Of a stretch of 64,000 bases of DNA, positions 1 to 63,525 are shown one piece after another. The position numbers and the translations under genes are program-made. Every line of letters starts with the position of its first letter. Positions within the stretch are counted from its first letter, which is position 1. The notes under the pieces are model-generated. The model did not search any database and was not told the DNA's origin. It saw only the letters and a list, made by a program, of their open reading frames with translations. Source of the DNA: Bugula neritina (lineage: Eukaryota > Animalia > Bryozoa); the NCBI GenBank assembly GCA_964035545.1, contig OZ037767.1, positions 21,096,628 through 21,160,627 on the forward strand, given 5' to 3'.

Positions 1-3623
<3,623 letters not shown>

Positions 3624-18199: not shown

Positions 18200-21100
18200 T
18201 CAACATTTCTGGAATACAAACAGATGCCCATCTACTCCTTCATTATTCTCAAACACCCAATGATTTGGATAGAACTCGTCTTTAACTATTTTCCATTTCC
18301 CTTCTGTGACTAGCTTATCAATAGTGGGTCTGAAATTTAGCTTATACTCTTCAACCGTCTCCAAGAATACGTCTCGCATGACCATCACAAAATATCCACC
18401 TGCAGGTAAATATTATGAGCACTAAACTTAGCCTATAAAACGTCTAGGAGAATTGTGAGAGCTAAACAAATGGTCAAAGAAACTTTTGTTTTGAGTAGCT
18501 ACAGTTATGCGCGTCTGTCTTTCATGATGAGTCACTACTGTACCAGAAAAGAATGTTGCCATTCACTGATCAATGAGTATGCATCGATAGCATCAATACC
18601 AATATTAAAAAACTAAAGTACACTAAAAACTAAATTTTGATATGTCAGTGTAAGCATAAAGCATCTTTACTAAAGGTTTCAATTTGATAAATGTTTCATT
18701 GCATGTAGGCACAGTCTTGCTGTGACAGCTAGTTATTGCTTGTCACAATAAGATCGTGACAAGTAATAGCAATCCGTAATAAAGTTTAGCAGAACCCAAC
18801 TATAATAGTTTGAGCTAATAAGGGAGCGGGTAACATAGCAATTGATAAACACCAGAAGCATCATGTGAAGTACACATTGTCAAGAGAAGCATACAGTGGG
18901 CTAGGTTTTATAGCTTGCCACTGGCAAAACGAGTAAAAACATGGGGAAACAATGGAACTATTTTGCGAGTTTTATTTTTAAAAAAATTCAGGTCAGAATA
19001 GTATTCTAATATATCGAGAATTGCTTATCATTAAAAGTGAAAAGATACTGAATAAACAGGTTGGTCTTTGGGAAAAACCCGTATAATCTTACCTGGTTTA
19101 AGTATGTTACAAATCTCAACTAACACCTCAGATTTCATGTGTCCAGCTACAAACGTTCCACAAGTCACAACTCCATCATATGTATCTACAATGTTATACA
19201 ACCCATCACACACTATTATATACTATACTATTATACATAGCAATTACTATATACACAACCATATGCCATATAAGATTATTATACCATATAATACTATTAT
19301 ACGTACTATGTTCCAGCCCACAGTCAAGGTACAGAAACTTCTGCATTATATTCGTGTACAACTTCTTTTCCTCTGCAATCTTATTCATACCTTCTGATGG
19401 TTCCAAACCCTCCAAGTTAGTGTACTGTCCCAGAGCCAACAACTGTATTACAAAACCCCAGGCTACTTTGGCAAGAGTATAAATATAAATATCTACAAGG
19501 TCATATCAGTTACACCATAGCTGTGTTTCTAAAAAGAATTTAACTTAACACAGCAGTTGAGTACAAAGTGACTTTCCAGAAACTACCTGGTTTCCAAAAT
19601 AAACTACTATCAATTATCTAATTAATTTGAATGAAATAAAAAGTGACATATTTACTGTATTATTAACAGTCAAAAGAACAGTAAGTTCACAAAAGCATTA
19701 ACTACATTAAATGGATAATATTGCAAAGGAGGGACTTTTTTACCTAAATGGAGGCTTAGTATGAAAGCCTTACCTTCTCTGCTATGAGTCCAGTTCCACT
19801 GCCGACATCTAGGATACGGGAGTCTAGCCTCTCTTTGAATAGATCGTGTGTGGTCTCAGCTACTACGCCTGGGCCACTGTTAACATAAATAGTTATTAGA
19901 ATCCTTTGAAAGCTGGTTGTGTGACACTAGACTTGTGTATCACATAGTGAAGCTTGTTGACTGGCATTGTACCAAGGCTAACTTCAGCACAGCAGATTTG
20001 GGTAGGCCTACTGGAAAAATGGCTTTTGTGTTACAATCACATGAGTTAGGCTGCTAGAAGGTTGAGGTGTGTGTGTGCGTGCTAATGAAGTGGGCAGATG
20101 AATGCAAATAATAACAAATAGGCTATTGAAGAAAAATGTTGGACATTTTTGTTAAGACATTGATTAAGTGAATATCTGTTTGACTGAGTGAAAGACTGTT
20201 TGAATTTTGACTGGGAAAATTGATGTATAAATTGTGGAGGAATCACTGTTAGAGTGAGTGAATATTTTGTATTAGCAATAAAGTGAATTATTGTTTTCTA
20301 GCTAATTATTTTTTATTCAAAACTAAAACTTGAAACTAAACCAAAATCAGTAAAAATTAGTCTTCTAGCTTGTTATGAGGCATATGTTTTAGTTTTATAG
20401 TTACTTGATAGGTTAAAAGAGGAGTTGTGTTACTTATGATTATTAGTTTGATCCACCATTCCAGGCAATATTTTGAGTTCAAAGAAGCACTGTGAGCCAC
20501 GACAGTGGTCAAAGAAATATTCTGTTGTTATTGCAAAACATGTCACCTGATTTTCTCACAGTAAGCTATGTTATGTTACCTGAACCTAACTGGATATTGT
20601 CTGGTTACTCCAGTACGTTCTTTGTTGTCTGAATCATTTCAGGTTTAGCATTGTGCGTCAGCTATCTGAGCTTTTTCTCAGACTATGAGCTTTCCCCTCT
20701 CCAGACAACAGTATGTGATGGAAAGTAGATTTAAAGGTAATTACTGCAGCTGACTGATATCACTTTTGAAGGAATATTTATTTTAAACAGTGTTATATAA
20801 ACATAACCGAGTTTGTATGTGTCAAAACATGGGTTTGTGTACGTAAGAGCTTTAAAGAATTTGTACAAGACAGAAGGTTTGCAATTGCAGACAGAATGGA
20901 ACCAATCAGAATGACTTTTATATACAGACACACTTGACTGCCCCTGGATGGTCATCCTAGGCATGCAATGAGCTAAATGGTTTTGAGATGGAAAATAAAT
21001 ACAGAATTGCTGCTTTTTTAAAAATCCCATATGATTTGGATGATAGCATAGACAGTAAAATAAGAATGCAGATTTTTCTCAATCAAATTTGTTCCAGTTT

Positions 21101-21374
21101 TTATAAGTATTTGTAAGGAAATGCATTGCGCTCTCTGCTTTGAAATTGACTTTTTTAGCTATAGAGATAGACTTTGTGTGTTTAAAATAAAATAAAAAAA
21201 GAAAATAGTCAAGTGATAGACTACCTACCCATAGCCATAAACTTTCATGTCTGAATCATAAACGGCAGCATTGCTGTTATAGAAATCAAGTCGTTCAACT
21301 GAATCCTGCTTCTCATCAATCACAGTAGGTTTGGCTACTTCATTCCATGGTGCTGCTGTCTTGGTGGCGGCCAT
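18200..21374 (-). CDS. METTL27: METTL27-like methyltransferase, copy 3 (225 aa). Exons 21374-21229, 19876-19774, 19442-19307, 19185-19093, 18399-18200
   Basis: MAATKTAAPWNEVAKPT..RLDFYNSNAAVYDSDMKVYGYGGP..ILDVGSGTG..KPGGYFVMVMR..FQKC*. All junctions are GT-AG and in frame. Convergent with copy 2. Confidence 0.87.
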
Positions 21375-25056: not shown

Positions 25057-25182
25057 CATGGGTGTTTTATTAATTATGACTTACAGTAAATAATACTAAT
25101 AGTGATACAACTATAAAAAATTACAAAAGAGAACGAATATAATCCATAAAAAATGTTACATATAGTTAACCTGTTTGTCTAT

Positions 25183-25487
25183 TGTGGTGGTTCGTGGAAC
25201 TACCAGCAGCACAACATGTAGGGTCGCGTAATTGACCCGGAACAATGGATAGCCAATTAGCGTAGTTGATAGTTAGCAGCAATTGTAGTTTCCCGCTGCT
25301 AACTCAGTCGAAGCTAGAGTGTGAAATAGATTAGATGTGTAACTTGTTTGGAAATAATGTATCGTTTTTATAATGTATAATTGTGTGTAAAATATACTCG
25401 TTCACTCGACTTATCCTGGTGCAGTTCTATAGTAAATAAATAGACTCTCTGGATAGCACATCAACCCTAAATCTGAAAAATATAACA
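25183..25487 (+). repeat. 5' LTR (305 bp)
   Basis: TGTGGTGGTTCG...AATATAACA; identical to 32385-32689 except T25233 vs C32435. Contains AATAAA. Confidence 0.97.
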
Positions 25488-25488
25488 G

Positions 25489-25506
25489 TGGTGGCAGCGG
25501 TGGGAT
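25489..25506 (+). promoter_or_regulatory. Primer-binding site, tRNA-Leu
   Basis: TGGTGGCAGCGGTGGGAT is the reverse complement of the 3' 18 nt (ATCCCACCGCTGCCA-CCA) of animal tRNA-Leu(AAG) as I recall it. It starts 1 nt after the LTR. Confidence 0.88.
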
Positions 25507-25518
25507 AGTGCATCCAAG

Positions 25519-26472
25519 ATGGAGACTGAAAATGCTGGAACTCAACCACCGGCAATCGAAGGTGAGCGTAGAGTCAATGCTGTAGAGACAATGCCTGTTA
25601 ACCATGTAGTAGAAGAGCGAAGGGTTCTGCGAGAACTAGCTGAGGACCGCTACAGGTTAAAGGCGCCCACCTTCACGGGTGAAGAGGAGGTGGAACAATT
25701 TATCCAAGAGTTTAGCGACGTAATGGACGTCGCTCAGTGGCCCCCTGGGGTGGCCTTGCTGAAGCTTAGAATGGCATTGATGGACAAAGCCAAGCCCTAT
25801 GGGCTGGGCGTAGACATTGATAATATCTTTGCTTCTCTGCGGGCCCGCTTTGGCCTCTCTGCTACAGATGCCAGGGCCCGATTGCAAAGGTTGCGGCGTG
25901 ATCCCCGCACCCCGCTGCGGGAGCATGCCGCCGCGGTCATGAAGCTGGCACAGATCGCGTACGGCGACTTGCCCCCAGTCAACCGCGAGAGGTACACCCT
26001 CGACGCTTTCATAGCATCTGTCGACGATCTGGGTCTCCACCACCAGTTTCTAGCTAGGGGAGTCACCACCGTTGAAGATGCTCTGACTGAGGGGGAAGCT
26101 TACCTCCTAGCTAATCAAATGCATAAAAGCCGCGGAAGCTCCCGCCAAGTGGAGATAGACCGCGCAGACGCGGCCGCGGGACAAGGGGAGGAAACCCCCG
26201 CCGCGGCTGCCGTGTCCCAGTTGGCGACGGCATCAAAAGTCACTCAACTGACGGACATGCTAGCCAAGCTGATAGCAACACTGACACCACAAAACCCAGT
26301 GAGTACCGCCCCTGAGCCCATGCGGCCATCGGCGCCGCCACAGGGAGAAACAGTCAGTTTTTGCTGGGAGTGCGGAAATCAAGGACATTTCCGCCGATAT
26401 TGTCCCTTCCTAAATCAGGGGTTAAACTACCGCGGCCCGCAGATGTTCCCACCTTCCGCGGGCCGACGATGA
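25519..26472 (+). CDS. gag: Gag (317 aa) with a CCHC zinc knuckle
   Basis: Capsid-like APTFTGEEEVEQFIQEF...W...L.ARF, and knuckle CWECGNQGHFRRYC. The ATG follows the PBS by 12 nt. Confidence 0.93.
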   Translation: METENAGTQPPAIEGERRVNAVETMPVNHVVEERRVLRELAEDRYRLKAPTFTGEEEVEQFIQEFSDVMDVAQWPPGVALLKLRMALMDKAKPYGLGVDIDNIFASLRARFGLSATDARARLQRLRRDPRTPLREHAAAVMKLAQIAYGDLPPVNRERYTLDAFIASVDDLGLHHQFLARGVTTVEDALTEGEAYLLANQMHKSRGSSRQVEIDRADAAAGQGEETPAAAAVSQLATASKVTQLTDMLAKLIATLTPQNPVSTAPEPMRPSAPPQGETVSFCWECGNQGHFRRYCPFLNQGLNYRGPQMFPPSAGRR

Positions 26473-29400
26473 AACCTCCAGGGAAGAAGAAACGCAGGTC
26501 ACCCAGACGGGTACCGCGTACTGGCAACCAACAGTGGCAACAGCCACGACGGACCAGCAAAGGGCTTTGCCCCGCAGCTGCCTTTTCTATGCCCCTTCAC
26601 AACAGATTCACAGGGCTACAAGTCCAAGAATCTGGATGGGAGCCCACAAAGGTAGCTGAGAACCTAGCCTCGGCACCCCCGAGGCCTACCTACCACCGCC
26701 CTAAGAGACCTCCTTCGCGACCCAAAGCGAGGGAGGTACTCCCTGCGAGAGTAAGGCCTGAAGGGAGAGTTCAGGTGCAGCCCCATGGGAACAGCTATTT
26801 CTTGCCCGGTAAACTGGAAGGCAAAGCTGTTACTTTCCTCATTGATTCGGGCTGTACCACAAACCTCTTAAGCCGCCAACTCTTCGACACCCTCAGTACT
26901 AGGGTCAGGGGCGAGATGGAAACATACGAAGGGGAATACGGCACCCTCGCTGACGGGTCGTGCCTTCCCTTCTATGGTATAATTGAGCTGACGGGACGAG
27001 TCCGTGATCAAACGATCCAAGAGACGTTCATCGTCAGTCAGCTCAAGGAGGATGCTATCCTCGGGATGCCGTTCCTTAAACGGCACGGATGTCACATAGA
27101 TTTTAGCAGATCTGCAATGATGATGTCCGGGCGGGAACTCGCCTGCGTCGACAAGTTCGGCCGCCCTTTAGTGGGAGGTGTGCAAGTGGTACGCAACCGT
27201 ATCATACCAGGCCGCTCCCGGGCTACCATTCACTGCAGGGTGAATAGTAGCCGGATCTCTGGACTCGGGGTGGTTGAAGGCGCGCACGAAAAGATCCAAC
27301 TTGCCAGCAGTCTGAATCAGCTGACTGAGCAAGGGGAGATCTTAGTGCAGTGTGTCAACCCCTTTACCGAGCCTATCAAGCTCCCGGCTGGGTCGATGCT
27401 GGGCCGTTTTCACTCTGTTCAGGAGGGAGACGTAGGCCCGTCGCTAGGTGATGCGACGGAGGCACCCCCTCAGTGCCCTATTCAGGGACGGGGGGCAGTC
27501 CCAACACATCTCCGGGAGTTATACGAAACAGCCAGTGGCGGCTGCGCGAGTAACAGAGAACGCCAAGCTATGGCTAAGTTACTACGCGACTACGGTGATG
27601 TGTTCAGCAGCGGAGAGCATGACGTGGGACTGACTGGAATTGTCAGACACGAAATACCGCTGACTGCAGGGACAGTCCCTGTCCGGCAGCCCACACGCAG
27701 ACTGGGGCCGGAGAAAGAGAAGGAGGTTAGCCGACAAGTACGGGATCTTCTGGACCGGGGACTGATAGAGCCCGCCCATAGTGCGTGGAGCTCGCCAGTC
27801 GTACTGGTCCGGAAGAAAGACGGCAGTTGGCGGTTCTGTGTGGACTACCGCAAGCTCAATAGCGTAACCATACAGGACGCCTACCCTCTACCTCGTATTG
27901 ACGAGTCATTGGACGCCCTAGCCGGCAGCAAGTACTTCAGTACGTTAGACTTGCTAAGCGGCTATTGGCAGGTTCCTCTGAGTCCCGACGCCCAAGAGAA
28001 AGCGGCGTTTATCACACGGGACGGTTTGTGGAAGTGGAAGGTGCTGCCCTTCGGGTTAACCTCCGCCCCAGCCACCTTCCAGAGGCTGATGGAACAAGTC
28101 CTTAGCGGACTCCATTGGAAGACACTGCTGGTCTACCTCGATGATGTCATCGTAATCTCTCCAGACTTCGAGACACATGTCAGTCGTCTGCAGGAGGTTT
28201 TCGAGAGACTCCGAGGTGCCGGTCTTAAGCTCAAACCTTCCAAGTGCGCTCTATTGCAGCCGGAGGTCAAGTATCTGGGGCACGTTGTCGGTCGAAACGG
28301 CGTGGCAACGGATCCCGAAAAGGTACGGGCAGTAGAAGACTGGGTCACCCCCCAAGACTTGACCGGACTCCGGGCTTTCTTGGGGCTGGTAGGGTATTAC
28401 AGGCAATACATACCAGACTTTGCGGGCATAGCCCAGCCGTTAAACCGGCTCACCGCAAAGGGAGTGACGTGGCAGTGGACTCCAGTCGAGCAAGAAGCGT
28501 TCGACCGCCTCAAGGGCTGCCTACTAACGGCGCCCATCTTGGCCTACCCAGACCCCACTCTGGAGTACATCCTCGACACAGACGCCAGTGACCAAAATGT
28601 TGGCGCTGTGCTGTCACAAGTGCAGGAAGGCCGAGAGGTAGTAGTAGCCTACTACAGCAAGTCTCTCTCACCCGCTGAACGAAATTACTGCACTACCCGC
28701 AAGGAGCTGCTGGCAGTAATCAAGTCGGTGAAGCACTTCAGACCATACCTATACGGCAGGAAGTTCCGGCTGCGTACGGATCATGCCTCGCTGATCTGGT
28801 TGTGGAAGAGAGCAGAGCCCTCCAGTCAGGTCGCCCGGTGGCTCGAAATCCTAGCTGAATTCTCATACCGGATCGAACATCGACCGGGCAAGAGACACAG
28901 CAATGCGGATGGGTTGAGTCGCCGACCTGACGGAGGTTGCAAACAGTGTCTCAACATCGAGAGGAGGGATGGAGGTCCCCCGCGATGCGAGTTGGAGACG
29001 CTGGCTCATCACAGAGCACCGTTTGACTGGGACCAAGGTCAACTCAGACAAAGAGTTGATGAGTCCCCGGAGGATGTACAAAACCTCCGCGCCAACCCTG
29101 TATTGGCCGGTAATGTTCGAGAGCTGAAGAAGCTCCAAGAAGAGCTGCCTGGAGTCGTGGCAGACATATACCGGGCCAAAAGGGAAGGGCGACGACCCAG
29201 CGAGGAACGCATACGACAGGGATGCGCCGAGTTCCGGCTATACTGTCAGCGTTGGGACTCGCTGCGGATCGGGCAGGATGGGTTGCTAACCATCTCTCTA
29301 GCTGCCAGCGGCAGACACCCGGAAAGGAAGAGGGTAGTCTGCCCCACGGCCATCCGCCGTGAGTTGATTTGGGATACTCACAAACAGATCCACGCAGGGA

Positions 29401-30992
29401 TCAAGAGAGTGATATCCAAATTACGACTCCGGTGGTATTGGCCGCAGATGGAGCGTGACGTCCGGCTCAGAGTCAAACAGTGTGAGATCTGCCAGGCCAG
29501 TAAGCATAGCCGCCCCCCTGGTGAAGCAGGACGGCGGAGGCTATATGCTGGTAGGCCCTGGCAAGTAGTCGCTGTAGACCTGGTCGGACCCATGCCCCTG
29601 ACCCCCAGAGGCAATAATTGGATACTAGTACTAACCGACCACTTTACTAGGTGGGCAGATGCTCTGGCTATCCCAGATGCATCAGCCCCAACAGTGGCCA
29701 GGGCACTAGACCAACATGTATTCTGTTATTTTGGGCTCCCCGAACAGATACACTCTGATCAAGGCGCTCAATTCCAGTCTCAACTGATGAGCGACCTTTG
29801 CCGCCTCTGGGGAGTAAATCAGAGCAGGACCACCCCCTACCACCCTCAAGGTAACGGGGTGGTGGAGCGCAACAACCGGATGCTAGGTGATGCACTCCGG
29901 AGTCTCCTCCTTGGACGAGGTCAAGAGGAATGGGATACGGTGTTGCCGCAAGTCATGCGTGCATACCGTAGCACCCCACACACCAGTACTGGTGAGACCC
30001 CAAACCTCTTGATGCTCGGGAGAGAGACTCGTGTCCCTGACCATCTCACCTATCACGTTCCAGAGCAAGATAACTCAGTCCACGAGTATGCCAGTGAACT
30101 AGTGGAACGGATGAAGGCCGCACACGATATACTGCGCCAACAGCAGTGGAAGGTGCGGCACGAAGATTCCGATGAACCACCTCTCTATCAAAGGGGAGAT
30201 AAGGTGTGGATGGTCAATTACCGTAGGCGCCGCGGACAGGCTGATAAGCTGAAGCCTAAGTTCGTAGGCCCCTACGTGGTCGTCGAGGCTATGCCCAATC
30301 ATACGTACAAGATTGAGCGCTCAGGACAGGTGTCTATCCAGAATGAGTCTCGCTTGAAACCGTATTGGGCTAGCCCCGGCGGAGTGGGAGAAGCCCCCCT
30401 GTTGTTAGAGCCCAGGAGGCAAACAACAACGCGCGGGCAACGGCGGCATGGACCTGAATACGAAGTGGTCATACCGCGGGAGGAAAACTTGGTGAGAGAG
30501 GAGCGGCAGCTTTTGTCAACAGAAGCGTGTCCGCCACCGCCAAGTCTAATTCCATCACTTCCAGAAACCGAGCCGGTTCCGGAAGTGCAAACCCCCACGG
30601 AGGGAGGGGCTCCATCCGGAGAACAAGAAGAGGTGACCGCTAACGGTGAAGTAGAGACGCCATTAGAGGCCCCTGCTAACGAACCGGCAAGCGTGTCACC
30701 CCCCCTAGAAAGGGGACAGCGTACGAGGCAACCCCCCGCATACTTGAAGGACTTCGTATGTGACTGCGTTAAAAGCGGCACACATGAAAGCCTAGGGGAA
30801 AACCGTACGAGAAAAGAATCGAGCAAATGTGGGAGTTGTCAACACCACGGAAATATCAACTTTTGTATCGGCGGAAATAGAAACAAAATTCATCCGCCGG
30901 GTGCACAAAGTCTTAATCACGCACCCCAACCACGTTGCTCGATCTTTTCATACGCTGATGCAGTCAGGAGTAGACGTGTTTCTAAGCAGTAG
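26361..30992 (+). CDS. pol: Pol polyprotein (protease, RT, RNase H, integrase), -1 frame relative to gag, uninterrupted
   Basis: LIDSGCT (protease); WRFCVDYRKLN, LPFGL, YLDD (RT); TDAS, KELLAV, TDH (RNase H); H..H..CEIC, VAVDLVGP, SDQG, VERNN (integrase HHCC/DDE); KFVGPY (GPY/F). Confidence 0.97.
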   Translation: MLGVRKSRTFPPILSLPKSGVKLPRPADVPTFRGPTMKPPGKKKRRSPRRVPRTGNQQWQQPRRTSKGLCPAAAFSMPLHNRFTGLQVQESGWEPTKVAENLASAPPRPTYHRPKRPPSRPKAREVLPARVRPEGRVQVQPHGNSYFLPGKLEGKAVTFLIDSGCTTNLLSRQLFDTLSTRVRGEMETYEGEYGTLADGSCLPFYGIIELTGRVRDQTIQETFIVSQLKEDAILGMPFLKRHGCHIDFSRSAMMMSGRELACVDKFGRPLVGGVQVVRNRIIPGRSRATIHCRVNSSRISGLGVVEGAHEKIQLASSLNQLTEQGEILVQCVNPFTEPIKLPAGSMLGRFHSVQEGDVGPSLGDATEAPPQCPIQGRGAVPTHLRELYETASGGCASNRERQAMAKLLRDYGDVFSSGEHDVGLTGIVRHEIPLTAGTVPVRQPTRRLGPEKEKEVSRQVRDLLDRGLIEPAHSAWSSPVVLVRKKDGSWRFCVDYRKLNSVTIQDAYPLPRIDESLDALAGSKYFSTLDLLSGYWQVPLSPDAQEKAAFITRDGLWKWKVLPFGLTSAPATFQRLMEQVLSGLHWKTLLVYLDDVIVISPDFETHVSRLQEVFERLRGAGLKLKPSKCALLQPEVKYLGHVVGRNGVATDPEKVRAVEDWVTPQDLTGLRAFLGLVGYYRQYIPDFAGIAQPLNRLTAKGVTWQWTPVEQEAFDRLKGCLLTAPILAYPDPTLEYILDTDASDQNVGAVLSQVQEGREVVVAYYSKSLSPAERNYCTTRKELLAVIKSVKHFRPYLYGRKFRLRTDHASLIWLWKRAEPSSQVARWLEILAEFSYRIEHRPGKRHSNADGLSRRPDGGCKQCLNIERRDGGPPRCELETLAHHRAPFDWDQGQLRQRVDESPEDVQNLRANPVLAGNVRELKKLQEELPGVVADIYRAKREGRRPSEERIRQGCAEFRLYCQRWDSLRIGQDGLLTISLAASGRHPERKRVVCPTAIRRELIWDTHKQIHAGIKRVISKLRLRWYWPQMERDVRLRVKQCEICQASKHSRPPGEAGRRRLYAGRPWQVVAVDLVGPMPLTPRGNNWILVLTDHFTRWADALAIPDASAPTVARALDQHVFCYFGLPEQIHSDQGAQFQSQLMSDLCRLWGVNQSRTTPYHPQGNGVVERNNRMLGDALRSLLLGRGQEEWDTVLPQVMRAYRSTPHTSTGETPNLLMLGRETRVPDHLTYHVPEQDNSVHEYASELVERMKAAHDILRQQQWKVRHEDSDEPPLYQRGDKVWMVNYRRRRGQADKLKPKFVGPYVVVEAMPNHTYKIERSGQVSIQNESRLKPYWASPGGVGEAPLLLEPRRQTTTRGQRRHGPEYEVVIPREENLVREERQLLSTEACPPPPSLIPSLPETEPVPEVQTPTEGGAPSGEQEEVTANGEVETPLEAPANEPASVSPPLERGQRTRQPPAYLKDFVCDCVKSGTHESLGENRTRKESSKCGSCQHHGNINFCIGGNRNKIHPPGAQSLNHAPQPRCSIFSYADAVRSRRVSKQ
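26421..26465 (+). promoter_or_regulatory. Candidate -1 ribosomal frameshift signal (G TTA AAC plus GC stem-loop)
   Basis: Heptamer at 26421-26427 in the correct gag phase, a 5-nt spacer, then an 8-bp stem CGGCCCGC (26433-26440) / GCGGGCCG (26458-26465). Confidence 0.7.
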
Positions 30993-31306
30993 TTCAAACC
31001 ATTTCACACATTCAGTATGTCTTACGACAACAGATCGTGGGGTGAGTTAACTATATCTTAATACGAAACTAGATTGCATCGCTCAGCTCTGACTCACTGA
31101 GTCAATCGAGCTGGAGATAGGTTAGTGAAATACCGTAGTAAGAACTCAGTTTGACCTAGAGATTTTTATAATCTCATTGCAATACGTGTTCTATCTGACT
31201 ATTCACTACCATTAATCTCTACGAGGTAACTGAATTAGGAGTTGCCAAGCTGTTCAAGCTGACAACACAGCAGTGTACTGTATTAACACTGTTGAAACTT
31301 TTTCAG

Positions 31307-32094
31307 ATTACACTCGACCCGCTACAACCAGGGTACGGGATAGAACACTTCCCGCTCCGTATCCGGAGGAGTATGCTAGTGGTGACCGGCCTGAGCCACT
31401 ACGCCGCCGTTGGCGGTGGGTGTCTCCACAAACAGAGGAAGAAATAGAAACGGCCTGGGGGTCCAGAGGACGGACGAGATGCCAGATCTGTGGTGAAGAT
31501 TGCGCCTCTCACCGCTCCCTTAAACTACACGCCAATGCTCATCTCCTACTAACATTCTGCTCCTGCGGGTACAATGATGTGTATCCCTACCCCGTCACCA
31601 GACACCGAGCGACGGGCTGTTTCCCTGGAGAAAACTACGTGGTCGACGCTAAGCTATACCCGGAGTTCCTCACACTTATACGACCTCTGGTGAAGAAGGC
31701 CATGTTGTTAGCCGTTCTGTCCTCGGGGTTCCAACGTGTGTTAGACAACGCCCGCCAACAATCCCCGTTGGTGTCTGACCGCCCTCAAATTACATACACC
31801 CCCGAGGAAACTGCATGTCCAGAAGAAGGAGAGATCTCCCCTACCCCGACGAAGAGACGAACCAGGTCCCCCAGTCCACCCTTGCGCCGCAGACGGACGC
31901 CGTCCCCAGACCCAGTACGCCTAGCCACAGTAGAAGAACGCCTCCTGCGATTACAAGAAGAATTCACCCAGCTGGCACCAGATCTACTTAACACTACAAC
32001 AGGACTCTTCCAGCTAAAGGGATCCGTATGCCGTATAAAACGGAAACTGCGTACATGCCAAGCCAAACACCGGCGTGCCCAACAAGGACTCTAG
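31307..32094 (+). CDS. Retrotransposon ORF3 main exon: C2H2 + C2HC zinc fingers, Arg/Ser-Pro basic tract, C-terminal coiled coil; probably expressed by splicing
   Basis: Open for 262 codons inside the LTRs. CQIC-x12-H-x3-H followed by CSC-x12-H-x4-C. Acceptor TATTAAC...ACTTTTTCAG at 31306. No N-terminal ATG, no signal peptide, no TM segment. Confidence 0.78.
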
Positions 32095-32371
32095 TTGGCT
32101 ACCCAGAATACTCCGCAACTTCACATCTTGGGAGGAACCAAGATGTCATGCAAATGTTTAACTGCTTAACAGGTTATCCCCTGTCTAACACCACAGCTAG
32201 CTAGTATTCCTCGTCTATCTACAGCTGGCCAATTGTATGCAACGGATCGTTATGATGACTCTGTCTATTATTATGTCTCTTCCTGTATATTATGTGTTAT
32301 TTTTGTCCACTGATGTATGCGGTTACTAATGAATGTTTTTTTTTTATATATATCAGAAAGATGGCTTTCTG

Positions 32372-32384
32372 CTGGTGGGGGCGG
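32372..32384 (+). promoter_or_regulatory. Polypurine tract (G-rich) of the retrotransposon
   Basis: CTGGTGGGGGCGG lies immediately before the 3' LTR. Confidence 0.75.
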
Positions 32385-32689
32385 TGTGGTGGTTCGTGGA
32401 ACTACCAGCAGCACAACATGTAGGGTCGCGTAATCGACCCGGAACAATGGATAGCCAATTAGCGTAGTTGATAGTTAGCAGCAATTGTAGTTTCCCGCTG
32501 CTAACTCAGTCGAAGCTAGAGTGTGAAATAGATTAGATGTGTAACTTGTTTGGAAATAATGTATCGTTTTTATAATGTATAATTGTGTGTAAAATATACT
32601 CGTTCACTCGACTTATCCTGGTGCAGTTCTATAGTAAATAAATAGACTCTCTGGATAGCACATCAACCCTAAATCTGAAAAATATAACA
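32385..32689 (+). repeat. 3' LTR (305 bp)
   Basis: Copy of 25183-25487, followed by TSD CTAT. Confidence 0.97.
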
Positions 32690-32930: not shown

Positions 32931-34907
32931 ATGGCTGCAAAATTTACTGCTGCCCCACAATCTGTAAACAGCAATGCTGATTGGAGTACGAGTGTTCTTA
33001 GTCCAATGACTGAAAAAGAAGAGCAAAGTGGAAAATTTACATCTCAGAGCAGAATTGAATTCTACAGTTCAAATGCTGACACATATGATGAAGATATGAA
33101 GAAATACTCTTTCAGGTTGATTGCAATTCTCCATAATATTTCACTATCTGCTACGAATGCTATTCGAAGTTAGTGTGACAATACTAAATCCTTAAATCAC
33201 CTGTCCTTTCAGCGCCATCAAATAAGAAAGCCATTAGGTACTTCAAAGCTTTTTAGATGCAGTTTTTATTGTGCTTGCTAACTCGCTGATCATAGTGTTA
33301 TGTCATATTTCTGAGTGTTACACCATGTTTATTCTCAAACTAGTGGGCCTGATGTCGCCGCACATACATTACATAATCTGTTGAAAGACAACCCCGATTC
33401 TCGTATTCTGGATGTTGGGTGTGGTACGGGTAAAGTTGCGGAAGTCGTGAGTATAGACATATAAGTATTGTCTCAAACCGAGCTGTTCTTTACACACATT
33501 TATACAATTTATCACATTGTTAAACTGCAGCCATAATACACAGATCGTGTTTGGAGTTTGGACCCCCACTCCAAACTGGAGAACCCTGAACTACTGCACT
33601 CAGTCACCTCCAACTCAGAGCTGCTTATAGAGCAATTCTTGTGTTGTAGCTGTTAGCCTTAGGACCTTACACCAACATCGATGGGTTGGAGGCAGCCCCT
33701 GGTATGCTCGCTCTTGCTAGAGCCAAGCAACTATACAAAAATACAATGGAAAAGTTCTTATATCTCAACTGTGGTCTTGAGCATGGTATGCGATAATTAC
33801 TAACTTCCAAGAGATAAGTTAGAGATAATAAATGAATTTTGTATTTCTGTATTATTTTGATTTAACTGAGTTATAATCCCACACATTCCGAGGTTCATAT
33901 TGTTTATATTTAATGACAAAAGTACTGTTCCTATACTCTTTGTTATAAAGCTTTCCCTGTGTTTAGTCAGTATAGAAAATGACATTTAAACTGCTGCATA
34001 AAATTAAAATATAGCTGACATTTATTTGATTGATTGATACAGCTGAGGGAGCTAACATAAACTCAATTTACTAACCTACGTATACTGAAGGTGGTGTATT
34101 TAACAGTCCCTTTAACTTCTTGCGTACACTATGTCATGGCATCTTTTAAAAGTGTGTATTTTTGATATCCTAAAGTTATGGGTCTTTGTTTCAGACACGT
34201 ACGATGGAGTTGTCTCATCTGGAACATTTGTCGCCGGTCACATGAAATCAGACTGTCTGATAGAACTTTGCAACATTCTTAAACCAGGTGCATCTCTGTA
34301 ATTGAGCTGAGTCGGTATTGAATGCAGTTGCTAAACTGGCAGCATTTACCCTTTTAGTAATAATCTAAGGTTCTGTATGGTCATATTTTCAAAACAGCTC
34401 ATGGCGTTATACCAAGATCAAATACTGAAATACTGATACCAAACCCAAAATACAAACCAGTTTAGCACTGTAAGTAACAGGTCTCAATTCGGAGTATCTT
34501 TCTTCTTAGCATATTCTCGAATCTTGAGTACAATTTAGATTGTAGCCCGTGACTGCTAGTTTTTTTTGAATATTTTAGTTCCCAAATTAATAGCAACATT
34601 TCTCTATGAAAAAACACTGATTACGTTTGAACTACTATATGTATGCATTGCAACCAGTTGTTACGGTTACAAGGACTGTTTATATTTATTGTCTACAGGT
34701 GGACACCTGGTGATCACGATGCGACATGAACACTTGGAAACAGTTAGTGAGTATAAAGAGAACTTTCGGCTAATAATTGAGAACCTTGTGAAACATGGGA
34801 AATGGAAGATCATCCGAGATGAAACATTTCCCAATTGGTGTTTTGGTGACAATGGTATGGGGATTGATGGCCACGTGTTTGTATTTCAAAAAAATCTTAT
34901 GGGTTGA
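32931..34907 (+). CDS. METTL27: METTL27-like methyltransferase, copy 4 (241 aa; the most distinct termini). Exons 32931-33115, 33344-33446, 33650-33785, 34195-34287, 34699-34907
   Basis: SRIEFYSSNADTYDEDMKKYSFSGP..ILDVGCGTGKVAEV..IDGLEAAPGML..DTYDGVVSSGTF..KPGGHLVITMR..FQKNLMG*. Same exon sizes and phases as the other copies. Confidence 0.88.
33548..33638. mobile_element. Partial MITE of family A in intron 2 of copy 4
   Basis: ...AACTACTGCACTCAGTCACCTCCAACTCAGAGCTGCTTATAGAGCAATTC matches the right arm of 23304-23504. Confidence 0.65.
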
Positions 34908-36542: not shown

Positions 36543-39500
36543 CTAACATTTCTGGAAAACAAACAAATGACCATCTAATCCGTGATTGTTCTCAAGCAAC
36601 CACCAGTTTGAGAAAACTTCGTCTCTAACTGTCCTCCATTTTTCTTCTTTAACCAGACTGTTAATGGTAGATCTCAGGTGCAGTTTATACTCTTCAACTG
36701 TTTCCAAATACTCGTCTCTCATAGCCATTATGAAATACCCACCTGCACGTTGAACGATACAGTGTTATACAGGCAGCAGAACATCACCATAGAACTATAT
36801 ATGGCAGCAGAATCTTTGTGACACGTTTTAGGAGAAAAAAACTATACTTCAGATTCCACGATTTGTTATTAGGAATGTTGTTTGCAATACTTCAATCCTA
36901 TAATCAAAAAATTGCTTTTGCCCTTCCACTAGATATTTGATTGGATAGTTTTCTGACTTCTGAGGGTATTGGAAATACTTTATGTATAACAAAATGGTGA
37001 TACAAGCACAGGAATTGCGTACACATGCAAAACTTTCAACTTTACCATGCTTGAAGTCTCTCAAATCAACACTAAAGGAAATCAGTTTTTTATTTTATAA
37101 CTTTTAAAACAAAAATAAACAAAAAAAAAACAATAATAAAGTTTTTTTCTGGTTGTTTTCTTGGCTCTGATAAATAATGCAGAATGAAGCTGTATACTGG
37201 TTATGTACAATAAGAGTTGAAAAACCCTAGAAAGGGTGTTGGTGAGAATTGCACGTCAATGAGTGTTCAACGATCAGAAATATACTGGAAGGTTCTGAAA
37301 GTAAACCCGTATAATCTTACCTGGTTTAAGTATGTTACAAATCTCAACTAACACCTCAGATTTCATGTGTCCAGCTACAAACGTTCCACAAGTCACAACT
37401 CCATCATATGTATCTACAATATTATACAACCCATGAGCCGTCACACACTATTATATACTATACTATTATACATAGCAATTACTATATACACGACCATGCA
37501 TATTGCATATAAGATTATTGTATCATATAATACTATTATACGTACTATGTTCCAGCCCACAGTCAAGGTACAGAAATTGTTGCATTATATTTGTGTACAA
37601 CTTCTTTTCCTCTGCAATCTTATTCATACCTTCTGATGGTTCCAAACCCTCCAAGTTAGTGTACTGTCCCAGAGCCAATAACTGTATTACAAAACCCCAG
37701 GCTTTATTAAACAGACACTCCGGCAAGAGTATAATATATAAATTTATCTACAAGGTCATACCAGTTACACCATAGCTGTGTTTCTAAAGACAATTTAACT
37801 TAACACAGCAGTTGAGTACAAAGTGACTTTTCAGAAACTACCTGGTTTCCAAAATAAACTACTATCAATTATCTAATCAATTTGAATAAAATATACGTTC
37901 ATAAAAAATGACATATTTACTGTACTATTAACAGTCAAAAGAACAGTAAGTTTAAAAAGCAATAACTACATTAAATGGATAATATTTCAAAGGAGAGACT
38001 TTTTTTATAAAATTGCTACTTTCAAAATTAATATACACTGAGATCTAAACGATTTGCAAAACAATCACATTTGAAGAAATGATTACATATATAATTATCA
38101 AAGTCTTACCTTCTCTGCTATGAGTCCAGTTCCACTGCCGACATCTAGGATACGGGAGTCTAGCCTCTCTTTGAATAGATCGTGTGTGGTCTCAGCCACT
38201 ACGCCTAGGCCACTGTCAACATAAAGCATAAATAAGAATCCTTTAAAAGCTGGTTGTGTGACACTAGACATGTCTATCAGATAGTGAAGCTTGTGACTGA
38301 CATTGTACCAAGATTAACTTCAGCACAGCAGATTTTGGTACTGGAAAATTGGTTTTTGTATTATAATTACATGAGTGTGGTTACTAGAAGGTTGGGGTAT
38401 GTGTGCATAATGAAGTAGGCAAATGAATGCAAATAAGAAGTATTGAAGCAAAATTTTGGAAATCTTTGTTAAAACATTTAGAGAGTAAATGACTGCATGA
38501 TTGAGTGAATATCTGTTTGACTGAGTGAAAGACTGTTTGGATTTTGACTGGGAGAATTGATGTTTAAATCGTGGAGGAATCACTGTTAGAGTGAGTGAAT
38601 ATTTTGTATTAGCAGTAAAGCTAATTATTGTTTTCTAACTAACTATTTTTTTATTCAAAACCAAAACTTAAAACTGAACTAAAATTAGTAAAAATTAGTT
38701 TTCTAGTTTGTTATGAGGCATATGTTTAAGCGAAGGGCCACACGATGCGTTTTACACGTTCGTGACGTGCGAGAAAACCCGTTCAGCCCAAAAATGGGAC
38801 GCCGTGAGCGGGATTTTTATGCGTCTAACATGCTGAGCGAGAAGTGAGGCAAGCTCATGCGTGTTTGATCTAATTGGCTCATTATCATTTAGCGAGCACT
38901 TTTTTTATTTCAATTTACGTTTTAGCTTTTAGCGAACTGAATTGATACAGTTTTATATAATTTGCATTTCCGCTGTAGGCGAGCAGTAAAGTTTAACGCT
39001 AACATCATTAGCTAATAAATTTCCTCACTTGCAACACACGCATTGTGTGTGGCATGTCTGAACGAGTTTTCTCGCACGTCACAAACGTGTAAAAATGCGT
39101 CATGTGGCCCTACGCTTAGTTTTATAGTTACTTGATAATTAAAAAGAGGAGTTGTGTTACTTATGATTATTAGTTTGATCCACCACTCTAGGGAATACTT
39201 TGAGTTTAAAAAAGCGCTGTGCACTATAACAGTGGTCAAAGCAATATTCTGTTGTTATTGCAAAACATGTCACCTGATTTTCTCACAGTAAGCTATGTTA
39301 TGTTACCTGAACCTAACTGGATATTGTCTGGTTACTCCAGTACATTCTTTGTCGCCTGAATCATTTCAGGTTTAGCATTGTGCGTCAGCTGCCTGAGCTT
39401 TTTCTCAGACTGTGAGCTTTCCTCTCTCCAGACAACAGTATGTGGTGCAAAGTACATTGAAAGGTAATTAATTACTGCAGCTGACTGATATCACTTTTGA

Positions 39501-40142
39501 AGGAATATTTATTTGAAACAGTGTTGATGTAAGCGTAACCAGTTTGTTAAATGTCAAAATATGGGTTTGTGTATGTAAGAGCTTTAAAGAATTTGTACAA
39601 GACAGAGGGTTTGCAATTGCAGACAGGGTGGAACCAATCAGAATGACTTTTATATACAGACACACTTGACTGCCCCTGGATGGTCATCCTAGGCATGCAA
39701 TGGGCTAAACTGTTTTGGGATGAAAAATATATACAGAAGTGCTGCTTTTTAAAAATGGATAATAGCATAGACAGTAACGAATGTATTGCTGCTTTTTTAA
39801 AAACCCCATATGATTTGTATGATAGCATAGACAGTAAGACAAGAACGTAGATTTTCTCAATCAAATTTGTTCCATTTTTTATAAGTATTTGTAAGGAAAT
39901 GCATTGTGCTCTCTGCTTTGTAATTGACTCTATAGCTATAGAGATTGAGTCTGTGTGCTCCAGATAAAAAAAATAGCGAAGTGATAGACTACCTACCCAT
40001 AGCCATAAACTTTCATGTCTGAATCATAAACGGCAGCATTCCTGTTATAGAAATCAAGTCGTTCAGCCGAATCCTGCTTCTCATCAATCACAGTAGGTTT
40101 GGCTACTTCATTCCATGGTGCTGCTGTCTTGGTGGCTGCCAT
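36543..40142 (-). CDS. METTL27: METTL27-like methyltransferase, copy 5 (225 aa; mosaic of copies 3 and 2). Exons 40142-39997, 38212-38110, 37681-37546, 37413-37321, 36742-36543
   Basis: Intact frame and GT-AG junctions. Exon 1 is nearly identical to copy 3; exon 5 differs from copy 2 by one residue (N/S). Confidence 0.85.
38729..39116. mobile_element. 388-bp MITE with long TIRs and probable TA TSD in intron 1 of copy 5
   Basis: AGCGAAGGGCCACACGATGCGTTTTACACG...CGTGTAAAAATGCGTCATGTGGCCCTACGCT. Absent at the paralogous site of copy 3 (~20381-20400, CATATGTTTTAGTTTTATAG). Confidence 0.9.

Positions 40143-41865: not shown

Positions 41866-63525
<21,660 letters not shown>

Follow-up and report, generated by a model that had tools for sequence, protein, structure and literature searches.

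A Probably Spliced, Non-Envelope Zinc-Finger Accessory Gene in an Intact Ty3/gypsy Retrotransposon of Bugula neritina and Its Possible Role in RNA Export

The Element and Its Third Open Reading Frame

The window analyzed here is a 64,000-nucleotide stretch of Bugula neritina contig OZ037767.1, and its positions 25183-32689 are a complete, intact Ty3/gypsy retrotransposon, present as one copy within the window. Its membership in this group is indicated by TG...CA long terminal repeats (LTRs), a target duplication, a primer-binding site (PBS) and a polypurine tract, all of which are present, as well as by the domain order that follows gag, protease-reverse transcriptase (RT)-RNase H-integrase, which is the gypsy order. 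The copy is a recent insertion, and its LTRs are identical at 304 of 305 positions, with the lone mismatch at 25233. The features are as follows, in window coordinates.

25183-25487, plus strand: 5' LTR, 305 nt, TG...CA, with the CTAT target duplication (25179-25182) directly 5'
25489-25506, plus strand: primer-binding site, 18 nt, which we take to be of the tRNA-Leu type
25519-25561, plus strand: first coding exon, common to gag, 14 codons plus one base, ending at the gag donor
25519-26472, plus strand: gag, 317 aa, one CCHC knuckle, frame uninterrupted
26469-30992, plus strand: pol, 1507 aa, uninterrupted; protease, RT, RNase H and integrase with an SH3-like C-terminus
31016-31041, plus strand: likely cassette exon, 26 nt, ATG at 31017 in the ORF3 frame; AG before it (31014-31015), GTGAGT after it
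31042-31306, plus strand: intron, 265 nt, with a branch-like site and a pyrimidine tract ending in CAG
31307-32094, plus strand: ORF3 main exon, 261 whole codons plus stop
32370-32384, plus strand: polypurine-tract-like segment, G-rich
32385-32689, plus strand: 3' LTR, AATAAA at 32637, with the CTAT target duplication directly 3'

The pol ATG overlaps the gag stop codon (ATGA, 26466-26472) in the -1 frame, and the N-terminus of pol is a long basic, proline-rich stretch ahead of the protease; translation could possibly pass from gag to pol by termination-reinitiation or by frameshift. When RNA folding was assessed in 124 windows of the element, the strongest folds lay within gag and at the beginning of pol, the most stable being at 26563-26742 (z -5.4 for 26623-26742) and 26143-26262 (z -4.9), and these predicted folds are candidate packaging, frameshift or response elements. 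The flanks of the element hold spliced-looking genes. Shortly 3' of the element, at 33345-33446, is an exon in which a SAM-methyltransferase motif (ILDVGCGTG) occurs. On the minus strand, a helicase-like exon at 2477-3307 resembles DNA polymerase theta, and short frames at 43000-45600 resemble the C-terminal part of a KIF1/unc-104 kinesin. A non-coding repeat pair of 1.1-1.6 kb, about 90% identical, lies on either side of the element (20083-21232 and 38408-40000).

Behind the pol stop codon at 30992 lies the exon of interest, referred to here as ORF3, which encodes in order a W-x-[ST] helix, a C2H2 finger, a CxC-x12-H-x4-C finger, a helical subdomain, a Pro/acidic linker and a coiled coil with a basic tail. 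The exon has no starting ATG, and because its sole in-frame Met, residue 132, lies downstream of both fingers, the full protein in this subfamily needs an upstream phase-1 exon. The acceptor ends TTTTTCAG just before 31307, and the first whole codon is at 31309. The original prediction had proposed that this exon is joined to one of two upstream donors to give a protein of 270 or 276 aa, and recomputing the coordinates of the exon, donors, acceptor and pol stop, together with the phases and both lengths, gave the same values throughout.

Predicted Splice Sites and Probable Start of the ORF3 Message

The donor in gag (GAAG/GTGAGC, after 25561, intron from 25562) is in phase 1 when read from the gag ATG at 25519 and by arithmetic yields a product of 276 aa, and the donor of the mini-exon (GGG/GTGAGT, after 31041) is in phase 1 from the ATG at 31017 and yields 270 aa. 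As the plus strand of the element contains ten GTRAG sites, finding two suitable donors is by itself of little weight, and it is the comparative data that decide.

The junction predicted from the gag donor is found in a protein of a sister family, P0026, at about 52% ORF3 identity. All 14 of its N-terminal residues are identical to the start of the Gag protein P0144 (14/14), and they are followed directly by the first codon of the ORF3 exon, placed as at the exon start in the read-through homologue P0032. This is the one Gag-ORF3 junction among the 199 ORF3-like proteins screened; two further candidates, P0047 and P0074, were rejected, as their match to the Gag start comprises only 7/12 acidic residues. 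The P0026 contig measures 5,320 nt, longer than the spliced RNA would be, and P0026 therefore more probably stems from a retrocopy of that RNA in the genome than from a transcript; a deletion whose ends fall at both splice sites is the formal alternative. If P0026 is such a copy, then the spliced message would have been packaged and retrotransposed, giving a short non-autonomous element without gag-pol.

The Gag homologues carry a corresponding signature. We considered 57 of 117 homologues, those with an N-terminal arm, the other 60 being truncated or without the anchor motif. At Gag position 16, which follows the donor, Glu is found in 57/57, and at position 15, which spans it, Gly is found in 51, Ser in 3, Arg in 1 and Asp in 2; each of Gly, Ser and Arg (55/57) has an NGT codon. 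At the adjacent positions 13 and 17 the top residue reaches just 44%, and the donor dipeptide is the best-conserved spot of the Gag N-terminal arm, also in subgroups that differ in arm length. At the acceptor, each of the 22 read-through homologues (22/22) has [FL][SL] as its last residues ahead of the exon, which fits a pyrimidine tract followed by YAG. Donor and acceptor are thus both conserved in sister families, where the original prediction had named their absence from sister elements as a result that would count against it. Taking these comparisons together, we consider it very likely that ORF3 is a real gene that is spliced from the gag donor, and of the two proposed starts it is this one that is supported, by way of the sister element.

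The second proposed start, the mini-exon at 31017, is better read as a cassette exon with its own acceptor. Joined to the gag donor, the mini-exon would end in phase 0, and ORF3 would then be read out of frame, with 46 codons to a stop; inclusion of the cassette would therefore shift the frame, such that the cassette ATG becomes the sole route to ORF3. In the contigs of RNA run X2, one variant row falls in 31010-31050, compared to 14 substitutions and 7 indels in 31051-31134, and there is no listed variant at either cassette splice dinucleotide. Furthermore, the read-through of homologue P0029 begins with Val-Ser exactly 88 codons ahead of the exon, matching the 265-nt spacing found here, which suggests conservation of the mini-exon donor, with the reservation that six codons specify Ser. 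Against such conservation, the loose ends of two diverged contigs have the dinucleotide of this donor altered. Judging from these comparisons, the mini-exon is likely a regulatory cassette exon. We note also that the 265-nt intron contains two inverted AP-1-like sites at 31090-31104 that are unique within the element, with variants at 31090, 31091 and 31096.

The junctions themselves were sought in two RNA runs, both of which are contig sets, so that missing joints are no proof of absence. Of the 21 X1 contigs on the element, none spans either junction and none lies on 31000-31400, and the joint 31041^31307 is absent among the 93 X2 contigs on 31000-31400. Over the whole element, none of the joints listed (15 of 57) equals a predicted junction. 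Hence, of the junctions that the original prediction had specified, the 25561^31307 type is present in the sister protein P0026, and none was seen in X1 or X2 contigs of this element. The fit of one X2 contig starts at 31308, with 14 unmatched letters ahead of it, and the lone X1 contig on ORF3 (31455-31673) was not taken as proof of expression.

The ORF3 Product and Its Relatives

When the exon was used as a query, 72 homologues, all of them unnamed, were returned (E<=0.001) at 44-96% identity. Over the 47 of these that were aligned with the query, the coiled coil is the best-conserved part (0.75 identity to the query), ahead of the finger domain (0.52-0.63) and of the N-terminus and linkers (0.26-0.31). 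The ligands of the two fingers that had been proposed for this protein, C58-C61-H74-H78 and C84-C86-H99-C104, are conserved in the homologues, each of the eight being kept in 85-100% of ungapped rows (35/41 to 42/42). Conservation in blocks of this kind, as read from the alignment, points to selection at the protein level, and the neutral decay that would have spoken against the gene did not appear. Of the five listed coding variants, four change a residue, all in the poorly conserved N-terminal part, which is too few for dN/dS.

The proposed heptad coiled coil with its basic patch is likewise borne out, with a C-terminal helix predicted at residues 208-260 (pLDDT about 80-95) and the patch found after the coil in 54/55 close homologues. 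From the heptads and the predicted helix, the product would be expected to oligomerize through this coil. Among the distant homologues with a long enough tail (n=32), a simple score finds a basic tract in 25 and a heptad repeat in 21. The basic SP-rich tract that had also been listed as a feature is subfamily-specific, in that only 2/65 close homologues have at least 5 R/K in the 12 residues before the coil; at least two Ser/Thr-Pro sites ahead of the coil are found in 62/65.

A profile search extends the family to 111 clusters (E<=0.001), bryozoan proteins among them. The distant homologues, of which 38 sequences were chosen, have in common a domain of ~95 residues without a Pfam family, in which a C2H2 finger and a CxC-x12-H finger are joined by a linker of five residues with aromatic ends, a W-x-[ST] helix preceding the pair and a Y-x-V-D helix following it, with the spacing of finger 2 across the family being CxC-x12-H-x3..7-C. 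In the 81 homologues with both fingers, the linker between them always has five residues and aromatic ends and is TGEKP-like in none (0/81), for which reason we rejected a classical Kruppel-type C2H2 array. Position +6 of the finger 1 helix is Leu or Val in 31/31 close homologues, which likewise counts against a classical array that reads DNA.

The ORF3 product itself has no Pfam family or fold match. In its structure models, only the coil and the first finger are predicted with confidence (overall pLDDT 66 and 58, i.e., low confidence), a viral fold search gave no match at E<=0.001, and fold searches returned only generic helices (best Z 6.2 for the coil alone and 3.7 for a weak domain model), results that do not establish a new fold. 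For the distant homologue P0280, a search in Atlas returned unnamed clusters at the top and then generic C2H2 families. The original prediction had not recognized it as a described gypsy protein, while allowing that it might be known, and no characterized family was matched.

The absence of a signal peptide or transmembrane segment had been proposed as well, and in terms of hydropathy, the one property on which this was assessed, it stands: the peak 19-residue value in the query is 1.51, 5/72 homologues reach 1.8, and the sequence thus predicts no clear membrane segment. Pfam gives no envelope family for the query (P0001) at E<=1, nor for 18 homologues at E<=0.1. We therefore rejected the reading of ORF3 as Env, there being no Env family match and no hydrophobic leader or membrane anchor, with conserved zinc ligands instead. 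Two other types of third ORF were also rejected, the first being sORF2/FAST (63-107 aa with a transmembrane helix), where here there is a 261-codon exon without a membrane segment, and the second the GDSL or DEDDy type, for which there is no such Pfam match. In sum, the homologues, the conserved splice sites and the lack of Env features support the view that ORF3 is an accessory gene which is expressed by splicing, encodes zinc fingers and is not Env.

The linkage of ORF3 to gag in the homologues is indirect, and comes from contig sizes. Among contigs of at least 5.5 kb, 4/12 ORF3 homologues have a contig size equal to that of a Gag homologue (null mean 0.05; reached in 0/20,000 trials), and when contigs of all sizes are considered, with those 4 included, 5 sizes recur between the two sets of homologues, 72 for ORF3 and 117 for Gag, against a null mean of 1.4 (P 0.013). 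Scanning the DNA around homologues in metagenome and viral contigs confirmed nothing, and a search among proteins of 1044-2980 aa found no homologue, which is weak evidence against a pol fusion. A scan for the PBS returned two loci, neither with the ORF3 domain; one of these, an IMG/VR contig (L002, 276-4988), has an identical primer-binding site and a single 1571-codon ORF, no ORF3 domain being found in it, and is apparently another LTR element.

Named homologues among the 30 clusters looked up are limited to uncharacterized proteins of the bryozoan Watersipora subatra and one "hypothetical protein". The W. subatra proteins XP_067940964.1 (E 1.1e-32) and XP_067944745.1 (E 5.9e-8) are true homologues of the finger domain, and the C-terminus of the former is a heptad repeat, as in ORF3; unlike ORF3, which belongs to an element, both are annotated as cellular genes without function. 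XP_067940964.1 (P0218) has annotated isoforms, and this protein and P0264 have two finger-domain copies each. The bryozoan gene for XP_067940964.1 is possibly a domesticated copy or the donor.

Possible Function and Comparison with Known Systems

With a donor inside gag, 14 codons from its start, and an acceptor beyond the end of pol, the splice would make a single intron of gag-pol, and the unspliced RNA would therefore have to compete with splicing. Our main reading is that ORF3 encodes a nuclear regulator which enables export of the unspliced gag-pol RNA, in the manner of Rev or of the CERV protein of Cer1 discussed below, a reading to which we assign a probability of roughly 45%. In such a scheme, the LTR transcript would be spliced by default, with gag-pol removed as a 5.7-kb intron; the resulting protein would enter the nucleus through its basic tail and oligomerize through its coiled coil, and its two packed fingers would bind element RNA, moving the balance toward unspliced genomic RNA. 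The 26-nt cassette, if included, would shift the frame and so may tune the amount of protein. We favor this role because ORF3 has CERV's kinds of parts: a splice shared with gag, a finger, a coil and Ser/Thr-Pro sites. Against the export model, an export-signal-like pattern is absent from the coil, with the sole match at 124-134, and no RNA structure stands out near ORF3 (z above -2 over 30883-31482); the finger type and the protein size also differ from CERV, the ORF3 product being about half as large. We note, moreover, that neither the simple retroviruses nor Drosophila gypsy is known to use a Rev-like protein in splicing env, so that the splice alone does not require one.

The product could instead be a transcriptional activator or anti-silencing factor, for which the foamy-virus Tas and plant VANC proteins are precedents, the coiled-coil dimer placing its fingers on the LTR or on chromatin and raising transcription. 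Finger 1 is a canonical C2H2 finger whose helix carries basic residues (for most of the distant homologues, Arg/Lys at +2, +3 and +5), positions +1/+2 of finger 2 are Arg-Asp in 36-37/50 of the distant homologues, the linker is acidic and proline-rich, and the annotation of the bryozoan homologues as cellular genes also fits. The top PDB sequence matches of the profile are SALL3/4 fingers (E 6.6e-6), but these span about 22 residues and one finger only, and none of the 81 homologues has the TGEKP-like linker. The finger 2 helix in close homologues is YPYPV-like, unlike a base-reading helix, and the basic patch follows the coil rather than preceding it as in bZIP proteins. We regard this reading, the main rival of the export model, as rather unlikely, while giving it serious weight.

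We find it improbable that ORF3 is a late-cycle factor, one that either directs the integration complex toward chromatin or keeps copy number down through an interaction with Gag or integrase. The 14 N-terminal residues in common with Gag and the strongly conserved coiled coil (0.75 identity), which could bind a partner, point this way, but the common residues sit in a variable arm ahead of the capsid region, the integrase already has an SH3-like C-terminus, and it is not evident how the product of a separate spliced message would reach the particle. Finally, it is very improbable that ORF3 is a passive, captured host fragment, or that its translation starts solely at the mini-exon ATG, under an internal promoter, and the gag donor is incidental, since, despite the cellular-looking Watersipora homologues, the few variants in the mini-exon region and a Met of their own soon after the exon start in 20/23 homologues, neither block-wise conservation over families 40-55% diverged, nor the P0026 junction, nor the invariant donor codons in Gag would be expected of a passenger, and the mini-exon's own acceptor fits a cassette.

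Returning to the export reading, a broader version of it, to which we are drawn only tentatively and which on balance we doubt, is that the finger-pair/coiled-coil family is a Rev-like switch in Ty3/gypsy elements of several marine invertebrate groups, evolved independently of Rev and CERV, in which regulation would have early and late phases in the style of complex retroviruses with the frameshifting micro-exon as a dial, and which would have been adopted as host genes in at least one bryozoan. Either way, the locus bears on how LTR retrotransposons with functional splice sites export unspliced RNA or escape silencing. A profile of the domain would in addition help repeat annotators to spot non-Env third ORFs that are now labeled "uncharacterised protein".

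With respect to known systems, the accessory gene is real and represents a new protein family in an arrangement of known kind. In Drosophila gypsy and its relatives, the errantiviruses, Env is a spliced ORF3 between pol and the 3' LTR. The gene described here occupies the same slot and is, very probably, likewise spliced from the element's 5' end, but has no Env family match, leader or anchor, and conserved zinc ligands instead. Non-Env ORF3s are described in the LTR elements of bdelloids, where they are of GDSL esterase, DEDDy nuclease, coiled-coil and TM types and are typically expressed from spliced messages (PMC5408684); these too are non-envelope third ORFs of metazoan Ty3/gypsy-like elements, and the word "zinc" does not occur in the main text of that report. 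In the MDG1/412 elements, as described in PMC11952523, sORF2 is a transmembrane fusogen of 63-107 aa and sORF1 a predicted helix-turn-helix protein. Like ORF3, both belong as accessory ORFs to Ty3/gypsy elements without env, and the sORF2 of some elements is located behind pol, but in that description they are without the finger pair and coil. In the literature searched, main texts including PMC13524379 and PMC12440569, there is no description of the present family, for which a repeat-library annotation may exist.

The comparison that bears most closely on the export reading is with CERV of the C. elegans Ty3/gypsy element Cer1, described as a spliced, nuclear protein that shares exons with gag, contains a Cys finger and a leucine zipper, is required for export of the genomic RNA and is switched by proline-directed phosphorylation (PMC10309623). 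By that description, the two have in common the first exon(s) shared with gag, for ORF3 as seen in the sister element P0026, and a nuclear-type basic signal, a Cys/His zinc site, a leucine zipper or coiled coil, and proline-directed Ser/Thr sites. They differ in that CERV is a protein of 517 aa encoded by 5 exons, contains a C4-type loop and has no obvious homology outside nematodes (PMC10309623), whereas ORF3, at about 276 aa, would need 2 exons and has C2H2 and CxC-H-C fingers, a C-terminal coil of its own and an exon wholly behind pol. CERV is also described as having a G-protein-like domain; for the low-confidence models of ORF3, fold searches gave generic helices only. In the literature searched, CERV is the sole tested element-encoded RNA-export factor in Ty3/gypsy, and is confined to nematodes; ORF3 would be a second, apparently unrelated candidate, for which the splice junction is defined, a domain of ~95 residues is conserved and an intact young copy exists.
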